A stretch of 64,000 bases of DNA from Pirellulales bacterium (GCA_044376405.1 JBILKZ010000003.1:4895-68894), one strand, 5' to 3'; shown: positions 7,269 through 39,406, counted from the stretch's first letter. Numbers and translations: made by a program. The notes: generated from the letters alone by a model not told the origin.

Positions 7269-8087
7269 GTGGTTGATCAGCCGCGGAGCAGTCAGCGATT
7301 CGAGGCCAAGCCCCGTACCGACGAGGCACCGCTCGTGAAGCGGATGCTCCAGTTGGCGAGGGCCCGGCCACGGTATGGATACCGTCGAATTGGATGGCTC
7401 CTTCGAGAAGAAGGATGGCGTGCAGGGTTGTCTCGGGTGTTTCGACTGTGGCAACGAGAGGGGCTGAAAGTGCCTGTAAAGAAGCGGAAAAGGCGACGAA
7501 TCGGGACGAGCGCAAACGGCTGCCACCGGCGTCGGGCCGAGGGTCCGAACGACGTCTGGTGCTGGGACTTCGTCTACGACCGGACGGTGAGCGGCAGCCA
7601 GTTGAAGTGGCTGTCTGTCGTCGATGAGTACACCCGTGAGTGCCTGGCCTTGAAGGTTGATCGTGGCATCACCAGCGAGGACGTGATCGACACGCTCTCT
7701 GAGCTCTTCGCGATGCGCGGGGTGCCCAAGCACATTCGCAGCGATAACGGTCCTGAGTTCATTGCCCACGCCCTCCGTCGGTGGCTTGGGCAGGTAGGTG
7801 TCGATGCTATGTACATAGCGCCGGGCAGCCCCTGGGAGAACGGCTACGCCGAGAGCTTCCACGGCCGCCTGAGGGATGAGTTCCTGGCAATGGAGATCTT
7901 CGATGGCGTCCGGGATGCCCGGGCGCTCACAGCTTCTTGGAGAGACGAATACAACACCCAGCGGCCACACAGCTCGCTGGGCTACCAGACCCCGGCCAGG
8001 TTCGCCGCCGCGTGTGCGGCTTCCGCCTCGGCCAAGGCCTCGGCTCCAGCCGCACACGCTGGTTCCCTTGGTCACCCCTGTTCCTAA
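7269..8087 (+). CDS. IS3-family transposase OrfB (DDE integrase core); probably expressed as an OrfAB fusion 6910..8087 by -1 frameshift
   Basis: The frame is -1 relative to orfA and is open upstream of the first ATG, reading VSPSRKRAAVAELQTKFGISERRACTVVDQPRSSQRF, which is typical of the IS3 OrfB N-terminus. Integrase-core motifs present: WCWDFVYD, HIRSDNGPEF, ESFHGRLRDEF. Confidence 0.9.
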   Translation: MVDQPRSSQRFEAKPRTDEAPLVKRMLQLARARPRYGYRRIGWLLREEGWRAGLSRVFRLWQREGLKVPVKKRKRRRIGTSANGCHRRRAEGPNDVWCWDFVYDRTVSGSQLKWLSVVDEYTRECLALKVDRGITSEDVIDTLSELFAMRGVPKHIRSDNGPEFIAHALRRWLGQVGVDAMYIAPGSPWENGYAESFHGRLRDEFLAMEIFDGVRDARALTASWRDEYNTQRPHSSLGYQTPARFAAACAASASAKASAPAAHAGSLGHPCS

Positions 8088-8136
8088 ACCCTCATATCGC
8101 CTGGCACATGAAATCCAACCCGGTCAGCATCGTCCG

Positions 8137-10656
8137 ATGGCCGAGAACCCCGCCCACATCCGGGCCGACGTGCTGGCGAAGACGGCGGCGGCCCAAGCCG
8201 GCGCGGCCGAGGCGGCAAGCAAAGGCTGGCAGCCGGGCAAGGAGATCCTGAAGAAGGGCCGCTTCGTGATCTTTGCCGGGCACGGGCATGTGTATGCGCT
8301 TGCCGAGCCGCTCGTGAGCGATGCCCAGGGGGCGGCGGTGCTCAAGCTCGCCGAGCCGCTTGTCGAACCTGTAAAGGAAGGCGAGACCGTCGCCGAAGTC
8401 CAATTGAAGATGGATTTCTGGTCCGCCGCCGATCCGGCGATCTGGGAGCAGGCCGGTGGGGACTTCGTGCGGGAAACCGCGGGTTACGGCGCCAATGCCG
8501 AGACCTGGAAGATGATGAAGGAGATCTATCCGAATCCGCCCCACGTGCAGATCGTCAGCAACAACGAGGGCGGCCGCAAAGTCGGCATCGGCGAATCGGG
8601 CGTGAGCTGGCATGCCCAGAACCAGAAGCTGGAAAAGGAGGCCGCCAGACAGGCCTATGTGAAGGGGTATGTGGAGAAGATGTCGGCCTACCTGCGCGGC
8701 ATCCGCAAGGCGCTGCCCTGGCCGGAGTCGACGGTGAAATGCATCGCCTACAACGGATTCGGCGTGAACTTCGAGGTCGGCCGCTGGGGCGGCTGGCAAG
8801 GGGGCGCGATTCCTTTCAAGCACGTCGACATGTATCCCTGGCTTGCCTGGGACGGTTCGGCGCCCGACTTTTACTGCTACGACTGGAACTACGCCACCGA
8901 CGAGCACGTCGGCTCGCCGCATATCGGCGCGATGCAGGCCTACACGATGCTCGCGCCGCGGGCCGAGGCCCAGGTGCCGGGCTACCAATGGCAACTGGCG
9001 ATCTGGGACGGCGGACAGAAAAAGCGGTACTCGTATGCCCGCTGGGGTGAACTCACCCGGACTCGCGACATCGGGAAGACCGCAACGGCGATCACCGCCA
9101 GCGGCGCCCTGAAGCTGCCGATCGAGGACGCGAAACCCGGCGCGCTGATCTTGGAGCAGGGCGACTTCTTTTCGATCGAGGGGCATTCGGACTACCAGCC
9201 CGCCCTCTGCACGGCACAGTTCGACGAGGTTTCTCTGCCGGGCGAGGCCGGTGGCGGCATCGGCCTCTTCGCATCCTCCGCCGACATCGGACCGGTGGGC
9301 CTTCCCGGCAAGGCAGCCTTCGCCGACGGCGTCTATATGGTGACAGGAGCGGGCCAGGGGTTTGATCAACGGTCGGCGAAGCCCGATGGCTTTCACTACC
9401 TCTATCGCCCCCTGCCAGAAGACGGCACAGTGTCTGCCCGGGTGAAGGCGATGGATAATCCCGTCGCCGCAATGCGGCCGGCCGCGACCGCGTATGTGCC
9501 CAACACACCCGGCGCCGACTATGCCGATCCCGCCGCGGCGGCGCTCCAGAAGGAGTTCGATGAGAAGCAGTCCAAGGTGGAAGGCACGGCGGCAGCCGGG
9601 GTCATGATCCGGGCGTCCAACGCCCCCGGCGCCCCGTTCGTCATGCTCTGCCAGCGGGGCACGCGGGTGTTTTTGATTCTTCGTCGCGATAAAGAGCAGC
9701 GGGCGGTGTTCACGCTCGTCACCGACAAAATCAATGCCGCCACCAAATGGCTGCGGCTCGAGCGCAAGGGGGATGATGTCGTGCCGGCCTATTCCACCGA
9801 TGGCGCGTCGTGGACGACTGTCGAACCGGTGAAGGTAAAGCTCGGCAAGGAGCCTTTGGCCGGCCTGGCGGTGACCTGCAGCAATTCGACACCCTTCAAG
9901 CTTCAAGTGTATAGCGCCGCCGCGGACGTCCGCGCCGATGCCGACGGGAAAGCCGTCATTCCCGTTGGAACACTGCAAGGCGGTCCGATTCTCATCAACG
10001 CCCATTTCAAGCCGATCGCCCAGGGGGCGAAGGTCTATTTCCACAACTACATGGACCGCTACGAGGGGCTCTGCAATGCCGCCCTCTGGCTCACGCGGCC
10101 GCGGATCATCCGCGAGTTCGGATGGGGCGACTTCAACGGCCAGGTCGACCGGCAGTGGAAGACGCTGATGCGGGCCGTCGACCGGGTGTGGACCGATCCC
10201 GTGCTCACGCGGTTTTGGCGCAAGGGCACGCTCGTGGTCAACCCGGACTACGAGGCGGCGACGGGCGTGAAGCATCCCCTCTGGGAGCTGACCGACCTCG
10301 ACAAGTCGGGAAAGGTCGGCCCCTGGCTTGAACTATGGAAGAAACAGGATCGTTTTCATCAATTGACCGTTCCCATCAATCCGCCCTTCGCGAAGTGGCC
10401 GCAGGTGTATCAGGTCGCTTTCCAGGCGAATCCCGATGACGAAGACGCGGTCATCAAGGTCTGGGCCTTCGCCTACGAGCTGGGCCAGACGCCCGACCGC
10501 GAGTGGCTGCTCTACGTGCAGTCGCCCCGCGAAGACCGCAAGGCGGTCGAAGTGAAGGTGCCCGGCTTCGGCGACGTCAGCGTCGACGTGCCCCGCACCG
10601 GCGCGTTCTATCACCTGAGCGAAGGCCACCCGGCCCCCACCCGCGTTAGCCAATAA
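8137..10656 (+). CDS. hypothetical 839-aa protein with a central concanavalin/LamG-like (DUF1349-type) segment
   Basis: The ORF-track start (7876) lies inside the IS. The first in-frame ATG after the IS end is 8137 (MAENPAHIRADV). No signal peptide. The central segment GLFASSADIGPVG...DGFHYLYRPLPEDGTVSARV...WLRLERKGDDVVPAYSTDGASWT looks like a beta-sandwich lectin/glucanase-type domain. This assignment is tentative. Confidence 0.65.
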   Translation: MAENPAHIRADVLAKTAAAQAGAAEAASKGWQPGKEILKKGRFVIFAGHGHVYALAEPLVSDAQGAAVLKLAEPLVEPVKEGETVAEVQLKMDFWSAADPAIWEQAGGDFVRETAGYGANAETWKMMKEIYPNPPHVQIVSNNEGGRKVGIGESGVSWHAQNQKLEKEAARQAYVKGYVEKMSAYLRGIRKALPWPESTVKCIAYNGFGVNFEVGRWGGWQGGAIPFKHVDMYPWLAWDGSAPDFYCYDWNYATDEHVGSPHIGAMQAYTMLAPRAEAQVPGYQWQLAIWDGGQKKRYSYARWGELTRTRDIGKTATAITASGALKLPIEDAKPGALILEQGDFFSIEGHSDYQPALCTAQFDEVSLPGEAGGGIGLFASSADIGPVGLPGKAAFADGVYMVTGAGQGFDQRSAKPDGFHYLYRPLPEDGTVSARVKAMDNPVAAMRPAATAYVPNTPGADYADPAAAALQKEFDEKQSKVEGTAAAGVMIRASNAPGAPFVMLCQRGTRVFLILRRDKEQRAVFTLVTDKINAATKWLRLERKGDDVVPAYSTDGASWTTVEPVKVKLGKEPLAGLAVTCSNSTPFKLQVYSAAADVRADADGKAVIPVGTLQGGPILINAHFKPIAQGAKVYFHNYMDRYEGLCNAALWLTRPRIIREFGWGDFNGQVDRQWKTLMRAVDRVWTDPVLTRFWRKGTLVVNPDYEAATGVKHPLWELTDLDKSGKVGPWLELWKKQDRFHQLTVPINPPFAKWPQVYQVAFQANPDDEDAVIKVWAFAYELGQTPDREWLLYVQSPREDRKAVEVKVPGFGDVSVDVPRTGAFYHLSEGHPAPTRVSQ

Positions 10657-26987: not shown

Positions 26988-28070
26988 TCATGCGGCCGTG
27001 GCACCAGGCAACGGCATGGTGTCGCTGCCGGTCGCGCCACCGGGCTCGGCGGGCGTGAGGCCGACGAGATCGACGATGTCGAGCAGTCCGACGGGGCGAC
27101 CGTCGGCATCGACCACAGGCAGTTCGCTCAGCCGACGTGACTCGAGCACCGCCACGGCATCCCGCAGCCGCGCTCCCGCCGTCACCGCCGTGGGCAGGCT
27201 GGTCATCACACCGCGGATCGGTCCATCGATGGCGACGTCGTTGCGGCGTTCGAAGAGCCGGGCCAGATCGCTGTCGGTGAATATGCCGGCCAGCATGCCG
27301 GCGTCGTCGATGATCATCACGGCGCCGGTTCGCCGCGACGGCAGCGGCTGCGAGAACACGGTCCGCACCGTTTCCTCCGGTCGGGCCGTCCGGCACTGCG
27401 AGAGCGGCCGCATCGCGTCGTCGACCCGCATCAACTGTCTGCCCAGGCTGCCCCCGGGATGCCGGGCTGCGAAGTCCTCGTGTGTGAAGCGGCGCAGGCT
27501 GCTCGTGACCAACGCCAGGCTATCGCCCAGCGCCAATAGGATTGACGTGCTCGTGCTGGGTGCCAGGCCGAGCACGCATGCCTCGCGGACAGGGCCGGTG
27601 GCCACCACGACCTCCGCCGCGCGGCCGAGCGTGCTGTCGACCCTGCCGGTGAGAGCGATGATCTTCACGCCCGCAGCCGCGAGGTGCGGCAGGAGCCGTG
27701 TGATCTCCTCCGTCTCGCCCGACTGTGAAAGCCCGAGCACGACGTCGTCGCGGCGCAACACGCCGAGGTCGCCGTGCATCGCCTCGGCCGGATGGAGAAA
27801 GTGGCTGGGTGTGCCGGTGGAGGCGAGCGTGGCCGAGATCTTCTGGGCGACGAGTCCCGCCTTGCCGATGCCCGTGACGACGACCTTGCCGCTGCAGCCT
27901 GCGATCATCCGCACAGCCCTACAGAACGACGCGTCAAGCGCAGCGGCCATCCGCAGGACGGCGTCTCCCTCGGCGCGGAGAATCTCACGGCCGTGGTCGA
28001 GCACGTCGGCGTCGGAGGGCTCCAACTGGGAGCTTCGTTCATCGATCGGAAGCGACGAGGGCGCAGTCAT
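26988..28070 (-). CDS. kdsD: arabinose-5-phosphate isomerase (SIS + tandem CBS, KdsD/KpsF family)
   Basis: GKVVVTGIGKAGLVAQKISATLASTGTPSHFLHPAEAMHGDLG, followed by two CBS-like repeats. Confidence 0.9.
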   Translation of the reverse strand: MTAPSSLPIDERSSQLEPSDADVLDHGREILRAEGDAVLRMAAALDASFCRAVRMIAGCSGKVVVTGIGKAGLVAQKISATLASTGTPSHFLHPAEAMHGDLGVLRRDDVVLGLSQSGETEEITRLLPHLAAAGVKIIALTGRVDSTLGRAAEVVVATGPVREACVLGLAPSTSTSILLALGDSLALVTSSLRRFTHEDFAARHPGGSLGRQLMRVDDAMRPLSQCRTARPEETVRTVFSQPLPSRRTGAVMIIDDAGMLAGIFTDSDLARLFERRNDVAIDGPIRGVMTSLPTAVTAGARLRDAVAVLESRRLSELPVVDADGRPVGLLDIVDLVGLTPAEPGGATGSDTMPLPGATAA

Positions 28071-28200
28071 GGTGGAGTCCAGCCGAGGGCGTGCGCGCGG
28101 AACCGCCGCGCGGGGGCGGGACTATAGGCCGACTGGGCAAACGCCGCAACGCGTGTTTTTCCGAGCGCGGCGAGTCAGCAATGATACGGAACACGCCGAG

Positions 28201-30017: not shown

Positions 30018-31502
30018 CTAATGCTCCACACCCGACTCCGGCTCGGGGAGCCAGTGGGTGAGGATTGCGCCAACCAGCGCGTAGGCCCCGGCCACGCCTG
30101 CGCCCACCAGCGCGATCCGCACCGGGTCGGGCGGCGTCGCGGCAGAGAGCGTGAGCGTGAGCCAGGCGGCGGCCGTGCCGAGCACGCGGCCACCGATGTT
30201 CGCGGCAAAGCTCTCGCCCGTGCCGCGGAGATGAGTGGGGAAGACGAGCGGGATGTAGTTGCCCCAGAAGCTGAACTGCGACACGGTGAACAGGCCGGCC
30301 ACGAAGATGCCCGCCTTGATCAGCGGCAGCGAACCAGCGTTCGGCAGTTGCGTCGAGATCCACCAGAAGAGCGCCGGCACAAGCAGGAGCGCCGGCAGCT
30401 GGAAGACCCGCAGCAGCAGCCTGCGGCTGGCGATCCGCAGCGCCGCGAAAGCCAGGAGCACGCGGCCCACCAAACCACCGATTTCCTGATAGATCGTGAC
30501 GCCAGCAACCGCCTCGTCGGTGGCGTTTCCAGCGATGCTCTTCAGCCGTCCGGGAGCCACGGTTTCCCCCTTCGCCTTCGCCGCGGCGATCGCCTCCTCC
30601 TGCGCTTCCTTCGCCGTGGCGAGAATCGCGGCGTGCCCCTTCGGCCCGCCGAGGATTTGGGGCAGCTGCTGGATCGCGCCGAAGGCGATGCCGTAGCTCG
30701 CGGCGAAGACCAGCGTCGTCACCAACGTGGCGCGGACGAGCGCGGGGCTGAACAGTTCGCGGATGCTGGGCCGCTTGAGCGTGCCAGCCGCCTTCTTCTG
30801 GGCCCACACGGGGCTCTCGGGCAGGAACGGCCGGATGAGGATCAGCGGCAGGGCTGGGATGACACCGGAGATGAGCGTGTACCGCCAGGCCTCGTGATCG
30901 CCGTGGATCGCGGGCAGTGCCAGCGCGAACTTCGCCGCGAGAATGTTGGCCACACCCACGAGCAGCCCGCCGAGCGAGGAGAACGCCTGCGTCCAGCCGA
31001 GCGCACTCTCCCGCTGCCGCGCATCGGGAAACAGTTCGGCAAGCCATGCCACCGCGGCCACGAATTCCACGCACACGCCGATGAACACGAGGCAGCGGAA
31101 AAAGAGCAGCTGCGGCAGCGACGTGGCAAAGCCCGCCGCCAGCGCCGCGAACGCGTAGAGCAGGATGCTGAACGTGAGCACCCGCCGCCTCCCCAGCAGG
31201 TCGGTGAGGTAGCCGCCCAGCAGACCGAAGACGCCGCCGGCGATCGCGGGAACGAAGAATAGCGCCCGGGCCCACTTCGTGTATTCGGGCGACCCTGGCA
31301 CGAGCAGCGGCACGCCCGCAGCCGTCGCGCCTCCCAGCGCCGCGAGCGCTGGCTTGATCACCAGCGGCAGCATCAGCAGTTCGTAGATGTCAAACGCAAA
31401 ACCGATCGCCGCGATGGCGCAGACGAGCCATCCGGTCGTCGACAGCCGGCCTGATGCGGTGAGCCCGCTCATGCGGGCAGAAGAGTCGTGAGGCGCGGCC
31501 AT
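30018..31502 (-). CDS. MFS transporter
   Basis: 494 aa with about 12 hydrophobic segments and the MFS loop motif GYLTDLLGRRRVL. Confidence 0.85.
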   Translation of the reverse strand: MAAPHDSSARMSGLTASGRLSTTGWLVCAIAAIGFAFDIYELLMLPLVIKPALAALGGATAAGVPLLVPGSPEYTKWARALFFVPAIAGGVFGLLGGYLTDLLGRRRVLTFSILLYAFAALAAGFATSLPQLLFFRCLVFIGVCVEFVAAVAWLAELFPDARQRESALGWTQAFSSLGGLLVGVANILAAKFALALPAIHGDHEAWRYTLISGVIPALPLILIRPFLPESPVWAQKKAAGTLKRPSIRELFSPALVRATLVTTLVFAASYGIAFGAIQQLPQILGGPKGHAAILATAKEAQEEAIAAAKAKGETVAPGRLKSIAGNATDEAVAGVTIYQEIGGLVGRVLLAFAALRIASRRLLLRVFQLPALLLVPALFWWISTQLPNAGSLPLIKAGIFVAGLFTVSQFSFWGNYIPLVFPTHLRGTGESFAANIGGRVLGTAAAWLTLTLSAATPPDPVRIALVGAGVAGAYALVGAILTHWLPEPESGVEH

Positions 31503-31594
31503 GCGGCGAACTCCATGGAGAACAGAAAACGAAGGAAGCCGATCAGGCCCAAAAGCCTATCGGCAAACCTTCGCGCGGAGAAATCGGGCCGATC

Positions 31595-32068
31595 TCACGG
31601 GCCGATCGACGGCGGGCACTTGGCGAGGAAGTCGCGAGGGCCACGGGTCGTGTAGTAGGGATAGGCGACGGCACCGGTGGGCGGGCCGGCTGGCCCGGTC
31701 GCGCCGTAGTTGGAAGCTTCGAGGGCAGCCTCTTCCTCGGGGCTCAGGTGATGCTTGGCCAGGCCACCGTAACGGCCAACGTGCCGCTTGTGGCAGGCTC
31801 CGTCTTCGCAGTCCCCACCCTGGCATGCGCCACCCTTGCAGCCGCCCGTCGGGCAAACGCCGCCCTGACAGGCACCGCTTTCACAGGCGCCATCCTGACA
31901 GGCGCCATCCTGACACGCACCGTCTTGGCATGCCCCGCCACCTGCATGCCGAGCCTGATGGGCGTAGGGGCCATCGAAGTTGGCGAGGAAGAGGCGATCG
32001 ATGATCGAACAGCCGCTCGACATGCCGAACACGGCGATCAACAGGACAAAGCTGGCAGAGCGTTTCAT
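31595..32068 (-). CDS. lipoprotein with Cys-every-fifth-residue repeat
   Basis: The start is moved to the ATG giving MKRSASFVLLIAVFGMSSGC (lipobox-like). It is followed by GGGACQDGACQDGACQDGACESGACQGGVCPTGGCKGGACQGGDCEDGAC and the C-terminal tail AVAYPYYTTRGPRDFLAKCPP. Confidence 0.6.
   Translation of the reverse strand: MKRSASFVLLIAVFGMSSGCSIIDRLFLANFDGPYAHQARHAGGGACQDGACQDGACQDGACESGACQGGVCPTGGCKGGACQGGDCEDGACHKRHVGRYGGLAKHHLSPEEEAALEASNYGATGPAGPPTGAVAYPYYTTRGPRDFLAKCPPSIGP
31793..31942 (-). repeat. 15-bp periodic coding repeat (G-x-C-x-x units)
   Basis: Ten Cys residues at strict 5-residue spacing. The nucleotide units are near-identical in the centre (ggcgccatcctgaca twice on the plus strand). 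Confidence 0.85.
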
Positions 32069-32239
32069 GGGCGAATTTTCCCGAGGGGCGGGGACGGTCG
32101 GCGGCAAACCACTGCCGGACTCCATCGCGATCACCAACGGTATCGGTCGTGCCGGCCGCACCAGTTGAAAAAACTCTGCGGGCGTGAAGCCAGGCAAGAT
32201 GGGCGGCGTTGCCGGCCCGGACGTCGTGTTTTTCGTGAA

Positions 32240-33574
32240 TCAGCCGTTATAGCGGCCGACGATCAGCGAGATGTTCTGCCCGCCGAAGCCGAAACTGTTG
32301 GAGAGCGCCTGATCGCACTTGCCTGCGCGGGCCTTGTTCGGCACGTAATCCAGGTCGCAATCGGGATCGGGATTCTCATAGTTGATCGTGGGCGGCAGCA
32401 TGCCGTCACGGATCGCCAGCAGGCAGACGATCAGTTCGGTGGCTCCCGCCGCCGCGATCAGATGCCCCATCATGCTCTTCGTGCTGGAGACAGGAATCTT
32501 GTAGGCATGCTCGCCAAACACATTCTTGATCGCGAGCGTCTCGACACGGTCGTTCACGCTCGTGCTCGTGCCGTGGGCGTTGATGTAATGGATGTCGTGG
32601 AGGCCCAGGCCCGCGTCGGCGAGTGCCAGGCGGATGCACGACGATGCTCCCCGGCCTTCGGGATGCGTGTCGGTGATCCGATAGGCATCAGCAGTCGAGC
32701 CGTAGCCGATCAGTTCCCCATGGATGTGGGCACCGCGTCTCTTCGCGTGTTCGAGTTCTTCCAACACCACCATGGCCGCTCCCTCGCCGAGCACGAAGCC
32801 GTCGCGCTCATTGTCGAACGGCCGGCTGGCCCGCGCGGGCTCGTCGTTGCGGGTGGAGAGGGCAGTGAGCAGGTTGAACCCGGTCACGCCGAAGGGATGG
32901 ATCATGCTGTGCGTGCCGCCGGAGAGCATCACGTCAGCCTCACCCCGGCGGACAATCTCAGTCGCCTCGCCGATCGCCTGGCTCGAAGCCGCGCAGGCCG
33001 TGAGACAGTTGAGGTTGGGCCCCTGCGCGTCGAACAGTCCCGCGAGGTGGCCGGCGGGCATGTTCGGTTCCTGCTCCACCTCCGCGAGCGGATGGAGCGT
33101 CTCCAGTCCTTCTTTCGTGAACTTCGCCACGTCGAGCACGTCGCCCGTGATCGCCGCATTCATCATGCGAGTGAAGGAGTCGAAGTCCTGCTGCCCTTCG
33201 CCGCTGCCCAGGTAAACGCCCAGTCGCGTTGGATCGGCGGGCAGACCGTGCGGCAGGCCGGCATCCTTCATCGCCTGCAGGGCCGCCCCCGCCGCGAATT
33301 TCGTGTGACGCCCGCAGAATCGCCAGCGGGCTGCGTCCTGGCCCTCGTCGCTGATGTCCCAATTGCGGACCTCGGCGGAAATCTTGGTCGGGAATCGCGA
33401 GGCGTCGAACACGGTTGTCGGGCCCACCCCCGACGCGCCCGCCATCAGGTTTTTCCAGAGCGGCTCCACGCCCAAGCCTAGCGGCGTGACGCAGCCAATG
33501 CCCGTGATCACCACCCTGCGCCTGCCGGCCACCATCGCCGCCCTCCGCTCACCACTGGAGTCTGTCGGGATCAT
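32240..33574 (-). CDS. fabF: beta-ketoacyl-ACP synthase II-like (KAS II)
   Basis: VVITGIGCVTPLG, active-site CLTACAASSQAIG, and NAHGTSTS and SSTKSMMGHLIAAAG (Cys-His-His triad). The ATG at 33574 shares one base with the upstream TGA (TGATG) and has GGAG a few nt upstream. The ORF track starts at a GTG at 33580. Confidence 0.9.
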   Translation of the reverse strand: MIPTDSSGERRAAMVAGRRRVVITGIGCVTPLGLGVEPLWKNLMAGASGVGPTTVFDASRFPTKISAEVRNWDISDEGQDAARWRFCGRHTKFAAGAALQAMKDAGLPHGLPADPTRLGVYLGSGEGQQDFDSFTRMMNAAITGDVLDVAKFTKEGLETLHPLAEVEQEPNMPAGHLAGLFDAQGPNLNCLTACAASSQAIGEATEIVRRGEADVMLSGGTHSMIHPFGVTGFNLLTALSTRNDEPARASRPFDNERDGFVLGEGAAMVVLEELEHAKRRGAHIHGELIGYGSTADAYRITDTHPEGRGASSCIRLALADAGLGLHDIHYINAHGTSTSVNDRVETLAIKNVFGEHAYKIPVSSTKSMMGHLIAAAGATELIVCLLAIRDGMLPPTINYENPDPDCDLDYVPNKARAGKCDQALSNSFGFGGQNISLIVGRYNG

Positions 33575-34074
33575 CACCACTCCGGCCGCACGAGCCGATT
33601 GCCCGCTTCGTCGCGACCGACATCATAGATATGCATCTGGTCGAGCCACCGCAGCAACTCGTGGGGTTCGAACAGCTTCGGCACCCCTTCGCCCGGCTCG
33701 AGATGGGCAAAGAACAATTCCGCCTGGCCCTGCACCTTGTCGCCCACCGTGCTGGTCACCTTCGTCAGTGAACCGGTCGGTTTCAGGTCAAGGATCTCGG
33801 CACGAAAACGGATCGAATCGCCCGGCACGGCATCGAATTGAAACTCTGCCTGAGCCACCTTCGCGAGCACGACCCGTCGATTGTAGTCGATCGCATCGGC
33901 CACAAGCAGGCCCGCGGTCTGCGCCATGCCTTCCACGATCAGCGAGTTTGGCATCAGTGCCGCACCAGGAAAGTGGTCGTGCATGTGCTCCTCTGCGAGA
34001 GACACATTCTTGACGGCAGTGGCGTGACGGGCCCGCACGAACTCGTCGAACCTGTCGATCCAAAACCAGCGCAT
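33574..34074 (-). CDS. FabZ/FabA-like hotdog-fold dehydratase
   Basis: MRWFWIDRFDEF...AEEHMHDHFPGAALMPNSLIVEGMAQTAGLL (catalytic His context). The start is moved to the internal ATG. Confidence 0.8.
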   Translation of the reverse strand: MRWFWIDRFDEFVRARHATAVKNVSLAEEHMHDHFPGAALMPNSLIVEGMAQTAGLLVADAIDYNRRVVLAKVAQAEFQFDAVPGDSIRFRAEILDLKPTGSLTKVTSTVGDKVQGQAELFFAHLEPGEGVPKLFEPHELLRWLDQMHIYDVGRDEAGNRLVRPEW

Positions 34075-34129
34075 AGGAGGGAAGGCCGGCAGCGAGGCCG
34101 TGTTTCCTGGGGACGTGACAGCAGAAAAT

Positions 34130-34516
34130 TCAGGCAGCCAGCTTGCTCTGCACGTAGCGAACCATGTCCTCGACGGTGAGGGTGTTCGCAAAGTTCTGCA
34201 CGCTGGGATTCTGCTCGAACTTGGCGAGATCGGCGAAAGGCATCCGCGACTTGAGCGTCGCGATGCCCTTCGCGTTCACCTTGCCGTCGACGACATACTC
34301 GGAGCTGGAGAGAACGTCTTCTGGAAAGAGTTCCCCGCGGGAGATCTTGATGCCAAACGCCTTCTCGAGGCGGAAGACGATGTCGAGGAAGTCGATCGAC
34401 TCGGCACCGAGATCGCCCACCATGGTCGCGTTCGGGGAGACATCCTCCTCGTCGACGCCCAGTGCGTCTACGAGTGCAGACCTGACCTTTTCGAAAATTT
34501 CATCGCGCGACGGCAT
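34130..34516 (-). CDS. acyl carrier protein with about 50-aa C-terminal extension
   Basis: The phosphopantetheine-site context is MVGDLGAESIDFLDIVFRLEKAFGI. At 128 aa it is longer than a canonical roughly 80-aa AcpP. The start is taken at the ATG (MPSRDEIFEKV). Confidence 0.8.
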   Translation of the reverse strand: MPSRDEIFEKVRSALVDALGVDEEDVSPNATMVGDLGAESIDFLDIVFRLEKAFGIKISRGELFPEDVLSSSEYVVDGKVNAKGIATLKSRMPFADLAKFEQNPSVQNFANTLTVEDMVRYVQSKLAA

Positions 34517-34708
34517 CGACGTGGCACCTTGCAAACGGGGAGAAAAAACCTAACCGACATTCGAAGGTTTTAGTGTCGGCCCGCCTTCAAGGGAACCCGA
34601 ATCCTATTTTTTTGGATTCCACGGCCAAAACCGGCAGGAGACTCGGCCGTGAAAGGCCTGCGAAAATCCACCAGGGCACGAAAATACCCGCAGACCGGCC
34701 GTCATCAC

Positions 34709-35320
34709 TCACGTACCGGCCGCGGCCGGGGATGCCAGCAGACCGGAATCACTGGCCCCTGAAACGCCAGAACCTGAAACACCAGAACCCTGCGCCTGCA
34801 TGGCACTCGGGCCGCCATAGGCGACCCGCCGGCCGCCGTCCAACTGCCGGGACGCCGGGTGGAGAATCGACCAGAGCTTCCTCATCTCCGCCCGCACGCG
34901 GGTGTCGACCGCGTCACCGTAGGGAATCCGGTCGGCCATGTTGTAGCGCTCCAGCACCAACCGGGCAGTGAGACTGGTGCGTTCTCCCACCTTCCCACTT
35001 GCCTTGACCTTCACGAATGGTCCGTCCTGCGACTGGATCTCAGCCGTGACGGTGAGCACCTTGCCCGGCTCGACGAAATCGCCGTATTTCACGTTCCTGG
35101 CCTCCCGCAGCACCACGATGCTGTGGGCAAAATCCTCGCCCAAGCGGATGGCCCAGGCGGCCGCCTGCGTCATCGATTCCAGCATCAGCACGCCGGGCAT
35201 GACCGGAAAGCAGGGAAAATGGTCGGCCAGATATTCCTCGGAGAGGGAGAGCGTCTTGATAGCCGTGATGCTCTTACCGGGCTCGATGGCCGTGACACGA
35301 TCAAGCAGAGTGAAACGCAT
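34709..35320 (-). CDS. FabZ-like hotdog-fold dehydratase with Gly/Ser-rich C-terminal tail
   Basis: MRFTLLDRVTAIEPGKSITAIKTLSLSEEYLADHFPCFPVMPGVLMLESMTQAAAW. The 125-codon N-terminal extension in the ORF track is rejected. Confidence 0.8.
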   Translation of the reverse strand: MRFTLLDRVTAIEPGKSITAIKTLSLSEEYLADHFPCFPVMPGVLMLESMTQAAAWAIRLGEDFAHSIVVLREARNVKYGDFVEPGKVLTVTAEIQSQDGPFVKVKASGKVGERTSLTARLVLERYNMADRIPYGDAVDTRVRAEMRKLWSILHPASRQLDGGRRVAYGGPSAMQAQGSGVSGSGVSGASDSGLLASPAAAGT

Positions 35321-35754
35321 GGCGACTCCATTCAAATCCTCGATGCACGCAGTATAGGAAATCAGCGCTGGCCCACAACCGCCGGGAATACGCCGCACAA
35401 TCGTTTTCACAAAACTGCCACGCTGACAGCCGCTCCAGACCGCACAGCCCCGAAGTTCTGCCACGCCACAGCCGGAGCCGTGGCCAGTCGGGGTTAAAGT
35501 CTTGTTTTTTGCGGCATTCCCCGCTTGTCGGCCATTCGGCCGCATCCGCCTTCCGGTTCGGCACGCTCTTTGCATTTCTCGTTTCGCGTGTCGGTGATTT
35601 GTTTGCAGGTGATTTGTTTTTGTCCGCCTTCGCTGCGAATGATTCAGCAGTTCAGCGTGCTGCGCGACAACAGGCGTCACACCGCAGAGCTGCATCGTTC
35701 CAGGGATGGCGGGCGAAACATCGTGCCACTGGGTTCCATGCCTCAGTTTTCCAT

Positions 35755-35773
35755 ACCTCAGACGTTCTGAGGT
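35755..35773. promoter_or_regulatory. perfect palindrome ACCTCAGA-CGT-TCTGAGGT upstream of the first hsp20
   Basis: Arms are 8 bp with a 3-nt spacer. CCTCAG occurs at 35741 and 35756, and CTGAG at 35767, 35778, 35790 and 35802 (11-12 nt phasing). Confidence 0.5.
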
Positions 35774-35850
35774 TTATCTGAGGCTCTGCCTGAGACTCTG
35801 TCTGAGTTTCTTGGTTCTTCCTTTGCCCTTCCCTTCCCGAGGAGCATGTC

Positions 35851-36405
35851 ATGCCCATGTATCGACCGATGTCTGGAGCGGGTTTTGCATACCCGCTGGA
35901 TGAACTGCGCGACGAGTTGGACCGGTTGTGGACCTCCCTCACAGCGGCCCCGCCGCTGCATGGATGGGGCGTTCGGCCCGGCTCCGACGTCTTTCCGGCC
36001 GTCAACCTCAGCGAGAGCGACGACTGCATCACCGTTGAAGCCGAACTGCCCGGACTCGAAGCCGGCGATGTTGATATCGCTGTGAGCGGCGAGGAACTCG
36101 TATTGAAGGGAGCCCGGCCGGAGCCGCACCGTCCCACTGAGCCCGCGGCCGCCAAGCCCACGACCGCTGAAACCGGCGATCCAGCCGGGCAAAGCACATC
36201 CGGGCAAGGCAACGGGGAGCGGCACAAGGCCGTCACCTGGCATCGCCGGGAACGGGGCACGGGCAGCTTCGAACGGCGGCTCACGCTGCCTGTCGCCGTG
36301 GATGCCAGCCGCGTCGAAGCCAAACTCGTCGACGGCGTGCTCACCATCACCTGCCCGAAGGCCCCTGAACGTCAGCCTCACAAGGTGAAGGTCCGGGCCG
36401 GGTAA
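35851..36405 (+). CDS. Hsp20/alpha-crystallin family small heat-shock protein (with loop insertion)
   Basis: FPAVNLSESDDCITVEAELPGLEAGDVDIAVSGEELVLKG ... RRERGTGSFERRLTLPVAVDASRVEAKLVDGVLTITCPK. The SD GAGGAG lies 6 nt upstream. Confidence 0.9.
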   Translation: MPMYRPMSGAGFAYPLDELRDELDRLWTSLTAAPPLHGWGVRPGSDVFPAVNLSESDDCITVEAELPGLEAGDVDIAVSGEELVLKGARPEPHRPTEPAAAKPTTAETGDPAGQSTSGQGNGERHKAVTWHRRERGTGSFERRLTLPVAVDASRVEAKLVDGVLTITCPKAPERQPHKVKVRAG

Positions 36406-36427
36406 TGCTGCGGCACGGCTGAATCCC

Positions 36428-36462
36428 ACGCCGTGGCCTGTCACCAAGTCAGGCCACGGCGT
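36428..36462 (+). other. 11-bp perfect stem-loop between hsp20 copies 1 and 2
   Basis: ACGCCGTGGCC (36428-36438) pairs with GGCCACGGCGT (36452-36462), with a 13-nt loop. No U-tract follows. Confidence 0.5.
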
Positions 36463-36514
36463 CCACCGATCGACAGACGGTATCCCAACAACCCCTTCCG
36501 ATAGGAGCATTCCC

Positions 36515-36934
36515 ATGGTCACACCCACCCAAACCGCCCCACAAGCAGCCAACCAACCGCGGCCCGAACAGCCCGCCCAGCAGCCGAAGGCCGCAGCGGC
36601 CCCCGGCCTCACCTACCAGCCCAACGTCGACGTCTGCGACTGTGGTGCCGAAGTGATGCTGGTCACCGACATGCCGGGGGCGTCGGCGGAGAGCATGAAC
36701 GTCTCCTTCGAGGACGGCGTGCTGTCGGTGCATGCGAAGGTGCCGCAGCGGTCCCTGCCGGGCCGGCAACTCGTGCAGGAATACGGAATCGGCGACTACC
36801 GTCGCTCGTTCCGGCTGGGCGAGGGCTTCGATGCGTCGCAGATCTCCGCCGAGTACCGCAAGGGCGTGCTCACGATCCACGTGCCACGGCTGGCGGCGGT
36901 GCGGCCACGGAAGATCGAGGTGCGGCCCGCCTGA
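36515..36934 (+). CDS. Hsp20/alpha-crystallin family small heat-shock protein
   Basis: YQPNVDVCDCGAEVMLVTDMPGASAESMNVSFEDGVLSVHAKV...GDYRRSFRLGEGFDASQISAEYRKGVLTIHVPR. Confidence 0.9.
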   Translation: MVTPTQTAPQAANQPRPEQPAQQPKAAAAPGLTYQPNVDVCDCGAEVMLVTDMPGASAESMNVSFEDGVLSVHAKVPQRSLPGRQLVQEYGIGDYRRSFRLGEGFDASQISAEYRKGVLTIHVPRLAAVRPRKIEVRPA

Positions 36935-37029
36935 CCGTCGTGCGGTGCGACCACAGAAAACGTGAAGAACGATGGTGTCGAGTGTTTTGCGAGTGAACAG
37001 TCTCAACTGAAAAGAAAAGGGGACGATCC

Positions 37030-37515
37030 ATGAGTCTGATACCTTTTCGCATGAAGCGGTCGAGCGGCATGGAGCCTGCCACCCTGACGACGATGGCCGA
37101 TTTCCGCAACGAGATGAACCGTCTCTTCGAGGGCTTCTTCAGCCGTCCGCTGACGGGGCCGTCGTGGTTCGAGACGGGCGAACCCAGCCAGTGGATGCCC
37201 GCGATCGATCTCTCGGAGAGTGGCGAGGAGATCCACGTGCGGGCCGAACTGCCCGGCATCGACCCGAAGGACGTCGATGTCAGCGTCTCGGAAGACCGGC
37301 TGGTGATCTCGGGCGAGAAGAAGTCGGCGACGCAGAAGACGACCGACGGCTGGACGCACCGTGAGAGCCACTTTGGCAGCTTCAGCCGCGCGATCCCGCT
37401 GCCGGAGGCGGTCGACCCCGCGAAGGTGACGGCCCGTTACGACAAGGGCGTGCTCACCGTCGAACTGACGAAGTCGCCGTCGAGCACCTCGCGGAAGGTG
37501 CCGGTGCTCACGTAA
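37030..37515 (+). CDS. Hsp20/alpha-crystallin family small heat-shock protein
   Basis: WMPAIDLSESGEEIHVRAELPGIDPKDVDVSVSEDRLVISGEKK...RESHFGSFSRAIPLPEAVDPAKVTARYDKGVLTVELTK. Confidence 0.92.
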   Translation: MSLIPFRMKRSSGMEPATLTTMADFRNEMNRLFEGFFSRPLTGPSWFETGEPSQWMPAIDLSESGEEIHVRAELPGIDPKDVDVSVSEDRLVISGEKKSATQKTTDGWTHRESHFGSFSRAIPLPEAVDPAKVTARYDKGVLTVELTKSPSSTSRKVPVLT

Positions 37516-37564
37516 GAAACGGCCGCTTGTCGCGTCATGTCGGCCAACGTCAAGGTATGCTGGG

Positions 37565-37593
37565 GGCCACGGGAGGAATCGCCTTCCGTGGCC
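37565..37593 (+). terminator. 12-bp stem-loop after the hsp20 triplet (weak U-tract)
   Basis: GGCCACGGGAGG-AATCG-CCTTCCGTGGCC with one G-U pair, followed by CTCAGCTCTTTCATC. It is intergenic only if the next gene starts at 37621. Confidence 0.4.
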
Positions 37594-37620
37594 CTCAGCT
37601 CTTTCATCTGCGACCCTCCG

Positions 37621-38460
37621 ATGCCACTCGTGCTTTCGCCAATCGCCGCGGCCGACGAAGGCCCGCTCTCGATCGAATTCGAGGGCGTTGTGCCCGACCG
37701 GCTACTCGATCTCGACGCCGCAGCCGTCGCCCGTTTCCAGGTGCTGGCCGACGGCCGTCCCTGTCCGCTCGGCGACCTGTTCACGATTCATGGCGATGCC
37801 GCCGATGGCCGGATCGAGTGCGTCGGCGATTTCTCCCGCGTGCATCGGCTCGGCGCCGGCATGCAACAGGGCGAGATCACGGTGCGAGGCAGCGCCGGCC
37901 GCCACGCAGCCGCGGCGATGGCGGGAGGCAGGCTGACCGTCAACGGTGACGCCGGCGACTGGCTGGCTGCCGGGATGACGGGCGGCGAGGTGCTTGTGGA
38001 GGGCAATGCCGGCGACAACGCCGCGGCGGCACTCCCCGGTGATGATCTCGGCGTCCGCGGCGGGCTGATCACGATCAACGGCGACGTCGGCTGCCTGGCC
38101 GGGGCGAGAATGCGGCGGGGCCTGCTCGGCATCGGTGGCTCCTGCGGCGAGGCGGCCGCCTTCGAAATGCGGGCCGGCACGGTGCTCGTGGCTGGTCGGG
38201 TGGGCCGGCGGCCCGGCGTGGGGATGCGGCGGGGCTCGCTCATTGCCCTGTCGGCCATGCCGGACGTACCGCCCACCTTTTCCCGTGGCGCATCCTGGTC
38301 GCCCACCGTTCTCCCGCTCTTGGCAGCCCGGCTGGCCCGGGCTGGATTCAGGGCCACCGCAGGCCGGCCGGCCGACGCCTTCGGCGGCGTCTGGCAGCAG
38401 TGGCATGGCGATCTCCTGACCGGCGGCCGGGGCGAGATTTTCCACCGACTCTGCCCCTGA
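37621..38460 (+). CDS. formylmethanofuran dehydrogenase subunit C / FhcC-like GXGXG beta-helix protein
   Basis: GEITVRGSAGRHAAAAMAGGRLTVNGDAGDWLAAGMTGGEVLVEGNAGDNAAAALPG...LITINGDVGCLAGARMRRGLLGIGGSCGEAAAFEMRAGTVLVAG. The start is moved from 37537 to the ATG at 37621. Confidence 0.75.
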   Translation: MPLVLSPIAAADEGPLSIEFEGVVPDRLLDLDAAAVARFQVLADGRPCPLGDLFTIHGDAADGRIECVGDFSRVHRLGAGMQQGEITVRGSAGRHAAAAMAGGRLTVNGDAGDWLAAGMTGGEVLVEGNAGDNAAAALPGDDLGVRGGLITINGDVGCLAGARMRRGLLGIGGSCGEAAAFEMRAGTVLVAGRVGRRPGVGMRRGSLIALSAMPDVPPTFSRGASWSPTVLPLLAARLARAGFRATAGRPADAFGGVWQQWHGDLLTGGRGEIFHRLCP

Positions 38461-38557
38461 GCCCAAAAATTGCGGATTTCCGTAACCCCGCTTCCGAGAC
38501 GGTCGATTCTCCGTTATTCTTTGGGACTCTCGTTCCGAACCTCAGAAGACAGCAACT

Positions 38558-38926
38558 ATGCCCACGATCAGCCAGCTCGTCCGCAGCCGCCGCCGGCCCA
38601 AGCGGAAGTTTTCCAAGTCGCCCGTGCTCGACCGCTGCCCGCAGAAGCGCGGCGTCTGTCTGCAGGTTCGAACGATGACGCCCAAGAAGCCGAATTCGGC
38701 TCTTCGGAAGATCGCCCGCGTGCGGCTGTCGAATCAGAAGGAAGTCACCGTCTACATCCCGGGTGAAGGCCACAACCTGCAGGAGCACTCGATTGTGCTC
38801 ATCCGCGGCGGCCGTGTTCGCGACCTCCCCGGTGTTCGCTACCACATCATTCGCGGTGCGCTCGACACGCTGGGCGTGCAGGGTCGGAAGCAGTCCCGCA
38901 GTCTCTACGGTGCAAAGAAGGGTTGA
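38558..38926 (+). CDS. rpsL: 30S ribosomal protein S12
   Basis: MPTISQLVR...[25 protein letters not shown]...[32 protein letters not shown]. Confidence 0.97.
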
Positions 38927-38935
38927 TAAGCAATC

Positions 38936-39406
38936 ATGGGAAGAATCACATCGAGCCGCGAGCAACTCCGTCCCGATCCGCGTTTTGGATCGCTGTTGGC
39001 CAGCAAGTTCGTTAACTGCCTGATGGAAGACGGCAAGAAGAGCGTCGCCCAAAACATCTTCTACAAGGCGATGGACATCGTCTCCGAGAAGATTACCGAC
39101 GCCGAGCCGATCGAGATCTTCAACCGCGCCATCGAAAACATCAAACCTTCGGTCGAAGTTCGGTCGAAGCGTGTCGGTGGTGCTGCCTACCAGGTGCCGA
39201 TGCAGGTCAGCCGCAACCGTCAGCAGTCGCTGGCGATCCGCTGGCTGCTCCTGTCGGTGCGTGAGAAGAAGGGCCGGGGAACGCACGAGAAACTCGCCGA
39301 AGAAATCGTCGCCGCCTACAAGCGCGAGGGTGCTGCGGTGACCAAGCGTGACAACGTGCACCGCATGGCCGACGCCAACAAGGCGTTCGCGCACTTCGCC
39401 TGGTAA
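38936..39406 (+). CDS. rpsG: 30S ribosomal protein S7
   Basis: PDPRFGS...[23 protein letters not shown]...[13 protein letters not shown]...[25 protein letters not shown]. Confidence 0.96.

Follow-up and report, generated by a model that had tools for sequence, protein, structure and literature searches.

A planctomycete gene cluster with two hotdog proteins, an enlarged acyl carrier protein and a FabF-like synthase as a probable second, dedicated acyl elongation module

Four consecutive open reading frames on the minus strand (32240-35320) of a 64-kb stretch of DNA from a Pirellulales bacterium (the window) encode, in this order, a FabZ-like hotdog protein (HD1), an acyl carrier protein (ACP), a second FabZ-like hotdog protein (HD2) and a FabF-like 3-ketoacyl-ACP synthase (KAS); their coordinates are collected in Table 1. 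Our analysis indicates that they probably form a second, dedicated type II fatty acid synthesis (FAS)-like elongation module that is typical of Planctomycetota and stands beside the housekeeping FAS. A first-pass annotation, made from the sequence alone, had proposed a stand-alone module of four same-strand genes built around a dedicated carrier; Pfam matches bear out the four genes, all on the minus strand, and the core idea holds, since the genes are conserved as a unit and the canonical FAS is separate in Planctopirus limnophila. The main idea of that annotation was right; the specific link to lipid A that it drew is not supported. We add to it a heterodimer signature in the two hotdog proteins, a FabG that other lineages encode within the cluster, and essentiality scores.

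The gene inventory of P. limnophila separates the cluster from the housekeeping FAS. The supplement of a transposon-sequencing (Tn-seq) study of this organism lists Plim_3124 (FabA/FabZ, 168 aa, minus strand), Plim_3123 (short-chain dehydrogenase/reductase, SDR), Plim_3122 (phosphopantetheine-binding), Plim_3121 (FabA/FabZ) and Plim_3120 (KAS) (PMC10632474), that is, the order that we find in loci in which an SDR gene is part of the cluster. The canonical genes are located elsewhere (acpP, Plim_2565; fabD, Plim_2566; plsX, Plim_2567; KAS/fabF, Plim_2564 and Plim_2562), as is a third FabZ (Plim_3297) (PMC10632474); because the canonical acpP, fabD, plsX and fabF lie outside it, the cluster is not the housekeeping FAS, and the earlier statement that it is not the core fab operon stands. 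That statement had been based on the lack of fabD, fabG and fabH nearby, which extends to the whole window: none of these genes, nor plsX, is found in the 64 kb, and tblastn detected no other FabG, FabI, FabZ or KAS homologue there.

That the four genes are no more than the acpP, fabZ and fabF of the organism is, in our view, very improbable. The KAS does score at the cutoff of the fabF equivalog model TIGR03150 (493.6 bits; cutoff, 493.75) and above that of the NCBIfam KAS II subfamily model (483.8 versus 387), but both hotdog proteins and the ACP lie below every NCBIfam equivalog cutoff (86 bits for HD1 and 76 bits for HD2 against a FabZ cutoff of 113 bits; at best 63 against 66 bits among the ACP models). 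Very strong conservation of the ACP and essentiality of the orthologous cluster in P. limnophila would also suit a housekeeping role; however, P. limnophila has the separate, essential acpP-fabD-plsX-fabF cluster and the third FabZ, Rhodopirellula baltica has five fabB/F paralogues (PMC2649909), fabD, fabH and plsX adjoin the cluster in none of the 95 loci that we examined for them, and the architecture and helix II of the ACP are atypical. On the P. limnophila inventory and the NCBIfam cutoffs, we rejected this explanation.

The cluster is probably essential. The paralogue tables of the Tn-seq study list as 'only essential' a two-member ACP family (Plim_2565 and Plim_3122), a three-member FabA/FabZ family and a five-member KAS family; Plim_3124 was scored 'unclear' (PMC10632474). 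The insertions listed for Plim_3124 (4043321-4043421; gene, 4043312-4043815, minus strand) are confined to its last ~110 nt; the hotdog core appears to be insertion-intolerant and the C-terminal tail dispensable. Literature searches returned nothing on the Plim locus tags and no expression data from R. baltica.

To describe the distribution of the cluster, we scanned one genome per GTDB species and obtained at least 596 relatives of the ACP; the best 80 of these, which we used for unit counts, all lie in Planctomycetota-type loci. HD1-ACP-HD2-KAS occurs on one strand and in the same order in 63 of the 80 loci, and HD1-ACP-HD2 occurs in 13 more, in which the KAS gene is cut by a contig end or was unrecovered; the genes are conserved as a unit across Planctomycetota. 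In these loci, the ACP (median identity to the window, 70%) and the KAS (74%) are closer to the window's proteins than are HD1 (56%) and HD2 (48%). Close relatives of the ACP number in the thousands; among the 120 best-matching clusters, identity to it is 84-99%, the length is always ~128 aa and the taxon label, where one is given, is Planctomycetia, Pirellulales or Planctomycetota. In a library clustered at 50% identity, 744 ACP clusters match at E ≤ 1e-10, and full-length relatives that carry the insert described below extend down to ~40% identity; the divergent clusters are labeled only Pirellulales, Thermoguttaceae, Phycisphaerales or generic Planctomycetota. The cluster looks universal in Planctomycetia. 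Several metagenome-assembled loci carry other labels, Candidatus Kuenenia stuttgartiensis (L006, L018, L021 and L023) or Chitinophaga/Chitinophagaceae (L008, L014 and L027); the ACPs at these loci are 79-100% identical to that of the window, the other cluster genes there are also close, and the labels are almost certainly binning or labeling errors.

The gene content varies among the loci. In 15 loci, a FabG-like SDR (3-oxoacyl-ACP reductase) is encoded between HD1 and the ACP; this reductase reaches 283 bits with TIGR01830 and also passes NF009466, a subfamily model. One lineage has the order HD1-ACP-HD2-KAS'-KAS, with KAS' at 7948-9285 in both L091 and L092; KAS' keeps the Cys (ITCGEASS), Phe and Asn replace the two catalytic His residues, and the protein may be a non-decarboxylating partner subunit. 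In a low-GC locus (47%; L095, 40-6192), the order is a GT2-family glycosyltransferase, a PaaK-like AMP ligase, an SDR (reverse), HD1, an SDR, the ACP, an AcpS-type phosphopantetheinyl transferase and HD2; the presence of this dedicated transferase suggests that activation of the ACP may depend on a separate enzyme.

The predicted attachment site of the ACP is Ser40 in DLGAESIDFLD, so the ESID context that had been noted in place of the housekeeping DSLD is indeed present, and Ser40 is invariant across the family. An AlphaFold2 (AF2) model that used 35 family members (pLDDT 95.5) has the canonical four-helix fold, with helix I at 4-19, helix II at 40-54, a short helix III at 66-69 and the terminal helix at 115-127; as in other ACPs, the phosphopantetheine serine is the first residue of helix II. 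Between helix III and the terminal helix, an insert of ~45 aa (about residues 70-113) forms in the model a small subdomain of a β-hairpin and three short helices. The first-pass annotation had counted about 50 extra residues as a C-terminal extension; the extra residues are there, but because the AF2 model and Foldseek place them internally, we read them as an insert before the last helix. A Foldseek search of the PDB with the model matched only ACPs of 72-101 residues, none of which covers the insert, with template-modeling (TM) scores of up to 0.89 when normalized to the target and at most 0.57 when normalized to the query; as modeled, the architecture of this ACP is without counterpart among solved structures.

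Helix II of the ACP is less acidic than that of Escherichia coli AcpP (FRLEKAF versus MALEEEF), and the net charge of the whole protein is -8 over 128 aa versus -15 over 78 aa. In addition, the basic ACP-binding residues of canonical FabZ are missing from HD2 (our sequences compared with PMC10139942). The less acidic helix II and the lack of the basic patch on HD2 suggest that the pathway is insulated from AcpP; an insulated ACP/FabZ pair, amxACP/amxFabZ, has been shown experimentally in the same phylum (PMC10139942).

The two hotdog proteins carry complementary signatures. The active sites of FabZ dimers are each made up of a His from one subunit and a Glu from the other. Among the HD1 orthologues, His34 is present in all those that are correctly called and Glu48 in all but one; in HD2, all 53 sequences keep Glu48, Gln52 and Gly55, and 14 of the 53 have another residue at the position of the catalytic His34 (Tyr in nine, Gln in two, Leu in two and Trp in one). 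The two residues of a composite site, HD1 His and HD2 Glu, are never both lost, and a quarter of the orthologues do without the HD2 His. This pattern, that is, loss of the HD2 His with retention of the HD2 Glu and the HD1 His, is what an obligate heterodimer that requires a single site would be expected to show, and it fits an HD1:HD2 heterodimer in which HD1 His34 and HD2 Glu48 would form that site. Precedents include mycobacterial HadAB, a heterodimer with one required active site. A further one is the heterodimeric dehydratase ApeI/ApeP, whose two subunits share one active site (PMC8041823).

In sequence, the closest solved relatives of both HD1 and HD2 are ordinary FabZ proteins (~30-35% identity), and searches of PDB sequences placed neither of them closer to amxFabZ than to ordinary FabZ. 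Both carry conserved C-terminal extensions of ~35-45 aa (~45 aa in HD2); in HD1, the hotdog core and this extension reach to about residue 165. The Gly/Ser-rich tail beyond, which the first-pass annotation had remarked on, is present and confined to close relatives. HD1 has an Ala and a conserved Trp where amxFabZ has the tunnel residue Ile69; Trp56, which lies beside the tunnel-glycine position, is nearly invariant among the orthologues. The precomputed Pfam annotation labels HD1 orthologues as ApeI-like; our own Pfam scan gave PF22818 at E 0.12 in one orthologue and no match for the HD1 of the window; as the label was not reproduced, we did not assign HD1 to the ApeI family.

The KAS has the intact triad that had been claimed for it (Cys in TACAAS; His in NAHGTST and in STKSMMGH, the latter with the Lys), and both the N- and C-terminal thiolase-fold domains are matched, as in elongating KAS I/II enzymes. 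Bacillus subtilis FabF matches it at E 2e-114, and its orthologues across the loci are 67-98% identical. All of these orthologues have GSGEG where FabF has GSGIG, which puts a Glu at the position of FabF Ile108, a ~14-aa insert after this motif, and PLAEVEQEPNM in place of FabF PFFVPSTIVNM; on these sequence characters, the KAS forms its own subfamily. In FabF, Ile108 is known to gate the acyl pocket, and the I108F substitution restricts the enzyme to chains of about C8; the acidic residues of the KAS may line this pocket or lie on the surface.

The start of the KAS gene bears on how it is translated. The first-pass annotation had proposed translational coupling to HD2 through a TGATG overlap; the overlap exists (33576-33572), but it is not a conserved start. 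The KAS gene calls of close relatives are 430-431 aa long and their tblastn alignments begin at the Met of MVAGRRR; in several relatives (L010, L020 and L023-L026) there is no in-frame start 5' of the equivalent Met, and the distance from the HD2 stop to the KAS start is 19-94 nt. Because of these relatives, and because GGAGGG precedes the ATG at 33535 in the window, coupling through the overlap is doubtful, and the KAS start is most likely ATG 33535.

In the mechanism that we propose, the 128-aa ACP would carry the growing chain, and the FabF-type KAS, with its Cys-His-His triad, would condense malonyl units onto the ACP-bound chain. A FabG-type reductase, encoded within the cluster in many lineages and presumably supplied in trans in the window organism, would reduce the 3-keto group, and the HD1:HD2 heterodimer would act as the 3-hydroxyacyl-ACP dehydratase, with its site formed by HD1 His34 and HD2 Glu48. 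The enzymes for malonyl loading and for any enoyl reduction would be encoded elsewhere, and the altered helix II of the ACP, together with the missing basic patch of HD2, would keep the pathway apart from AcpP.

The first-pass annotation took the rhizobial acpXL cluster (acpXL-fabZXL-fabF2XL-fabF1XL) as its precedent, and the likeness is real: a dedicated ACP is followed by a FabZ-type dehydratase and a FabF-type KAS, apart from the core fab genes, and the remaining steps are left to housekeeping enzymes. In rhizobia the product is the 27-hydroxy-C28 acyl group of lipid A, and an AcpXL-like system in Planctomycetota would extend ordinary chains into long or very long acyl or hydroxyacyl groups for lipid A or lipopolysaccharide. 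The shared gene order, the lineage with two KAS genes, the use of extended ACPs for very long chains (AcpM and AcpXL), the presence of the AcpXL structure 2KW2 (RPA2022) among the structural matches of our ACP, and the essentiality of the lpx genes in P. limnophila would all agree with such a system. However, the relation to AcpXL is not a special one, and we rejected it: in the PDB sequence search, the E-value of 2KW2 against the ACP (4e-9) lies among those of ordinary ACPs (2e-13 to 1e-7), and its target-normalized TM score is 0.65 versus 0.8-0.89 for housekeeping ACPs, so the ACP is as close to housekeeping ACPs as to AcpXL.

The two clusters also differ in composition. The planctomycete cluster has an extra upstream hotdog gene with the heterodimer signature, one KAS where rhizobia have two (two only in the L091/L092 lineage) and an ACP with the 45-aa insert; the LpxXL acyltransferase and alcohol dehydrogenase of the rhizobial system are not among its recurrent neighbors, nor among the examined genes that adjoin it. 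It is also scored essential, whereas acpXL is dispensable. The proximity of kdsD, given earlier as about 5 kb, is confirmed in kind by a KdsD-like gene with SIS and CBS domains at a distance of ~4 kb, which would suit an AcpXL-like system; synteny in this direction is, however, seen only in close relatives: the fructose-bisphosphate aldolase gene that separates the cluster from kdsD in the window was recovered in 12 of the 92 loci used for neighbor clustering, and kdsD lies beyond the fetched flanks in most. As for possible products, such a system would also agree with the (omega-1)-hydroxy C26-C32 acids that have been found, only residually bound, in some planctomycetes (Telmatocola and Zavarzinella), but these acids are absent from Gemmata (PMC3327967). 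With the acidic residues in the presumed pocket region of the KAS, which does not look like a long-chain pocket, we consider an AcpXL-like system for lipid A or lipopolysaccharide unlikely.

A second family of comparisons comes from the putative heterodimeric dehydratase. Aryl polyene (APE) type II polyketide synthases (PKSs) use two single-hotdog proteins as a one-site heterodimer together with a ketosynthase, a FabG-like ketoreductase and dedicated ACPs, and have no enoyl reductase (PMC8041823); a highly reducing system of the aryl-polyene/ishigamide type would make a polyene or polyunsaturated chain. The residue pattern of the planctomycete hotdog proteins would fit a heterodimer of the ApeI/ApeP type, no enoyl reductase lies in or near the cluster, and the polar presumed pocket region of the KAS, the extra KAS-like partner in one lineage and weak NCBIfam matches to the cispentacin proteins AmcB, AmcE and AmcF point in the same direction. 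The precomputed ApeI-like tag would do so too, but it is not reproduced as a significant match in our own scan. Moreover, the KAS is FabF-like, at the cutoff of the fabF model; a chain-length factor, an aryl-loading ligase or other starter-loading enzyme, a thioesterase and LolA/MMPL-type (Lol/MMPL) export genes are absent from the window, from the recurrent neighbors in the 92 loci and from nearly all loci; and essentiality is not expected of a pigment-type product. A PKS-like function is therefore improbable.

The dedicated elongation module that we favor has a parallel in the mycobacterial FAS-II system (AcpM, KasA/KasB, HadAB/HadBC, MabA and InhA), which is likewise an essential second elongation system beside a primary FAS, with an enlarged ACP, a FabF-like KAS and a heterodimeric hotdog dehydratase that has one obligatory catalytic subunit. 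The parallel does not extend to sequence beyond the general families. The extra residues of AcpM lie at its C-terminus and those of the planctomycete ACP within the fold; the Had proteins are of a hotdog subfamily other than that of FabZ, and the planctomycete cluster has no linked enoyl reductase. Within the phylum, the comparison is with the anammox amxACP-amxFabZ cluster (proposed to make ladderanes), which also pairs a dedicated ACP with a FabZ variant that has substitutions in its tunnel and ACP-binding patch, and whose ACP/FabZ pair does not cross-react with the canonical ACP (PMC10139942). In contrast to our cluster, amxFabZ forms homohexamers, and the anammox cluster adds radical-SAM and desaturase-like genes (PMC10139942); amxACP is not among the 60 ACP matches listed, no insert is mentioned for it, and HD1 and HD2 are as close to ordinary FabZ as to amxFabZ.

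The anammox pair also bears on a short-chain system, in which the cluster would act like mitochondrial FAS and make a short or medium acyl-ACP, for example octanoyl-ACP for lipoylation, or a chain for a cofactor or precursor. Such a system would explain essentiality beside a complete canonical FAS, and it would agree with the Glu at the Ile108 position of the KAS and with the Ala and invariant Trp of HD1 at the Ile69 tunnel position of amxFabZ, an enzyme that prefers chains up to C8 (PMC10139942). These are, however, sequence positions only; lipA and lipB are not linked to the cluster, bacteria normally draw octanoyl-ACP from the main FAS, and the large insert of the ACP is more like those of long-chain carriers. 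We give the short-chain explanation little credence.

For the dedicated elongation module, our best guess is that the product is a specialized acyl chain for an essential envelope lipid, for example the long-chain 3-hydroxy or (omega-1)-hydroxy acids of planctomycete envelopes. Several observations weigh against the module as we describe it, or against this product. Neither a product nor a gene for an acyltransferase, a thioesterase or an enoyl reductase could be tied to the cluster, so that its output is unreadable from its context. In the KAS, the Glu in place of FabF Ile108 and the acidic stretch at the position of pocket-lining hydrophobic residues of FabF would argue against a simple long-chain pocket, and the (omega-1)-hydroxy very-long-chain acids are missing from Gemmata (PMC3327967), although the cluster is seemingly Planctomycetia-wide. 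HD1 keeps its own Glu48 as well and may thus contribute to a second active site or form homodimers. The orthology of Plim_3120-3124 to the genes of the window is deduced from order, annotation and length, and it is in P. limnophila that the separate canonical acpP, fabZ and fabF were located. Finally, in the one Phycisphaerales genome examined only HD1 and the ACP are adjacent, and no hotdog, KAS or reductase gene adjoins three of the four most divergent ACPs for which we read the surroundings.

A broader claim is more tentative, and we hold it at somewhat less than even: that Planctomycetota have a phylum-wide, essential second acyl line with a new class of ACP, a FabZ-derived heterodimer, a KAS subfamily of its own and orthogonality to AcpP, which makes a lipid or cofactor chain. 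If this is true, the cluster would be a bacterial counterpart of the split between FAS-I and FAS-II in mycobacteria, or between cytosolic and mitochondrial FAS in eukaryotes. The cluster differs from the dedicated ACP modules known in rhizobia, mycobacteria, aryl-polyene producers and anammox bacteria in that it is phylum-wide, scored essential in the sole planctomycete with Tn-seq data, and built on a new ACP architecture; its product could account for the essentiality of all five KAS paralogues and both ACPs in P. limnophila; and it would be a natural example of two type II pathways that are kept separate in one cytoplasm. To identify the product would add a missing piece to the envelope and lipid biology of planctomycetes. 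Within the phylum, dedicated ACP/FabZ pairs are not unique to anammox bacteria, which gives context to the 'ladderane' pair. We found no discussion of the cluster in searchable papers.

Table 1. The cluster and other features of the window (positions within the 64-kb stretch)
Feature	Position	Strand	Evidence or remark
HD1, FabZ-like single hotdog protein, 203 aa	34709..35320	-	PF07977 (FabA), E 6e-17 and 9e-18; GGAG 6 nt 5' of ATG
Dedicated acyl carrier protein, 128 aa	34130..34516	-	PF00550, E 3e-12
HD2, second FabZ-like hotdog protein, 166 aa	33574..34074	-	PF07977, E 2e-10 and 1e-10
FabF-like KAS, 431 aa, Cys-His-His triad	32240..33535	-	PF00109, E 3e-45; PF02801, E 8e-38
Promoter-like conserved element in HD1-ACP spacer	34567..34601	-	invariant columns in alignment of eight spacers
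Putative lipoprotein, conserved neighbor	31595..32068	-	adjoins KAS in many loci, on either strand
KdsD-like gene (SIS+CBS)	26988-28121		~4 kb from the cluster
Three Hsp20/alpha-crystallin genes	35851-37515	+	divergent from HD1

Clustering of the neighbors in the 92 loci identified as recurrent the three divergent Hsp20 genes, a PtsI-like enzyme, a thioredoxin, a major facilitator superfamily (MFS) transporter and the small lipoprotein; an acyltransferase, a thioesterase or an enoyl reductase is not recurrent beside the cluster in these loci, and a FabI-like gene lies near it in one locus only. The Hsp20 genes adjoin HD1 in 30 of the 92 loci (e.g., L001-L004, L042, L043, L049, L050, L059, L062, L070 and L078), including distant ones in which HD1 is 53-63% identical; this adjacency could be plain synteny or could reflect shared heat or membrane regulation. 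In the putative lipoprotein, a signal peptide with a lipobox Cys is accompanied by variable repeats rich in Cys and Gly (e.g., GACQDGACQD), and no Pfam family matches the protein; its C-terminal motif, YPYYTTRGPRDFL..PPSIGP, is nearly invariant, with variants described by YPYYT(T/L)RGPRDFL..PPSIGP. Further copies lie beside the KAS at 3931-4032 in L029, 8425-8487 in L034 and 9797-9886 in L045, all on the minus strand.

The spacer between HD1 and the ACP contains a promoter-like block, TTCGGGTTCCC-N-GGCCGACAyTAmAAC, ~50-85 nt 5' of the ACP start; in the eight spacers that we compared, it is conserved although the rest of the spacer is unalignable. The block is a candidate internal promoter (TTCCCA-17-TAmAAC) that could drive ACP-HD2-KAS apart from HD1. 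It has no Rfam match, an Rfam search of 31000-37000 gave chance-level matches only, and a scan for promoters and terminators found nothing that exceeds the shuffled background. A weak hairpin and then a T-run follow the block.

Beyond the Hsp20 genes, a protein with a GXGXG motif is encoded at 37537-38460, upstream of rpsL and rpsG (S12 and S7; 38486-39406, plus strand), which are followed by a gene for a PNPOx-like flavoprotein instead of fusA.

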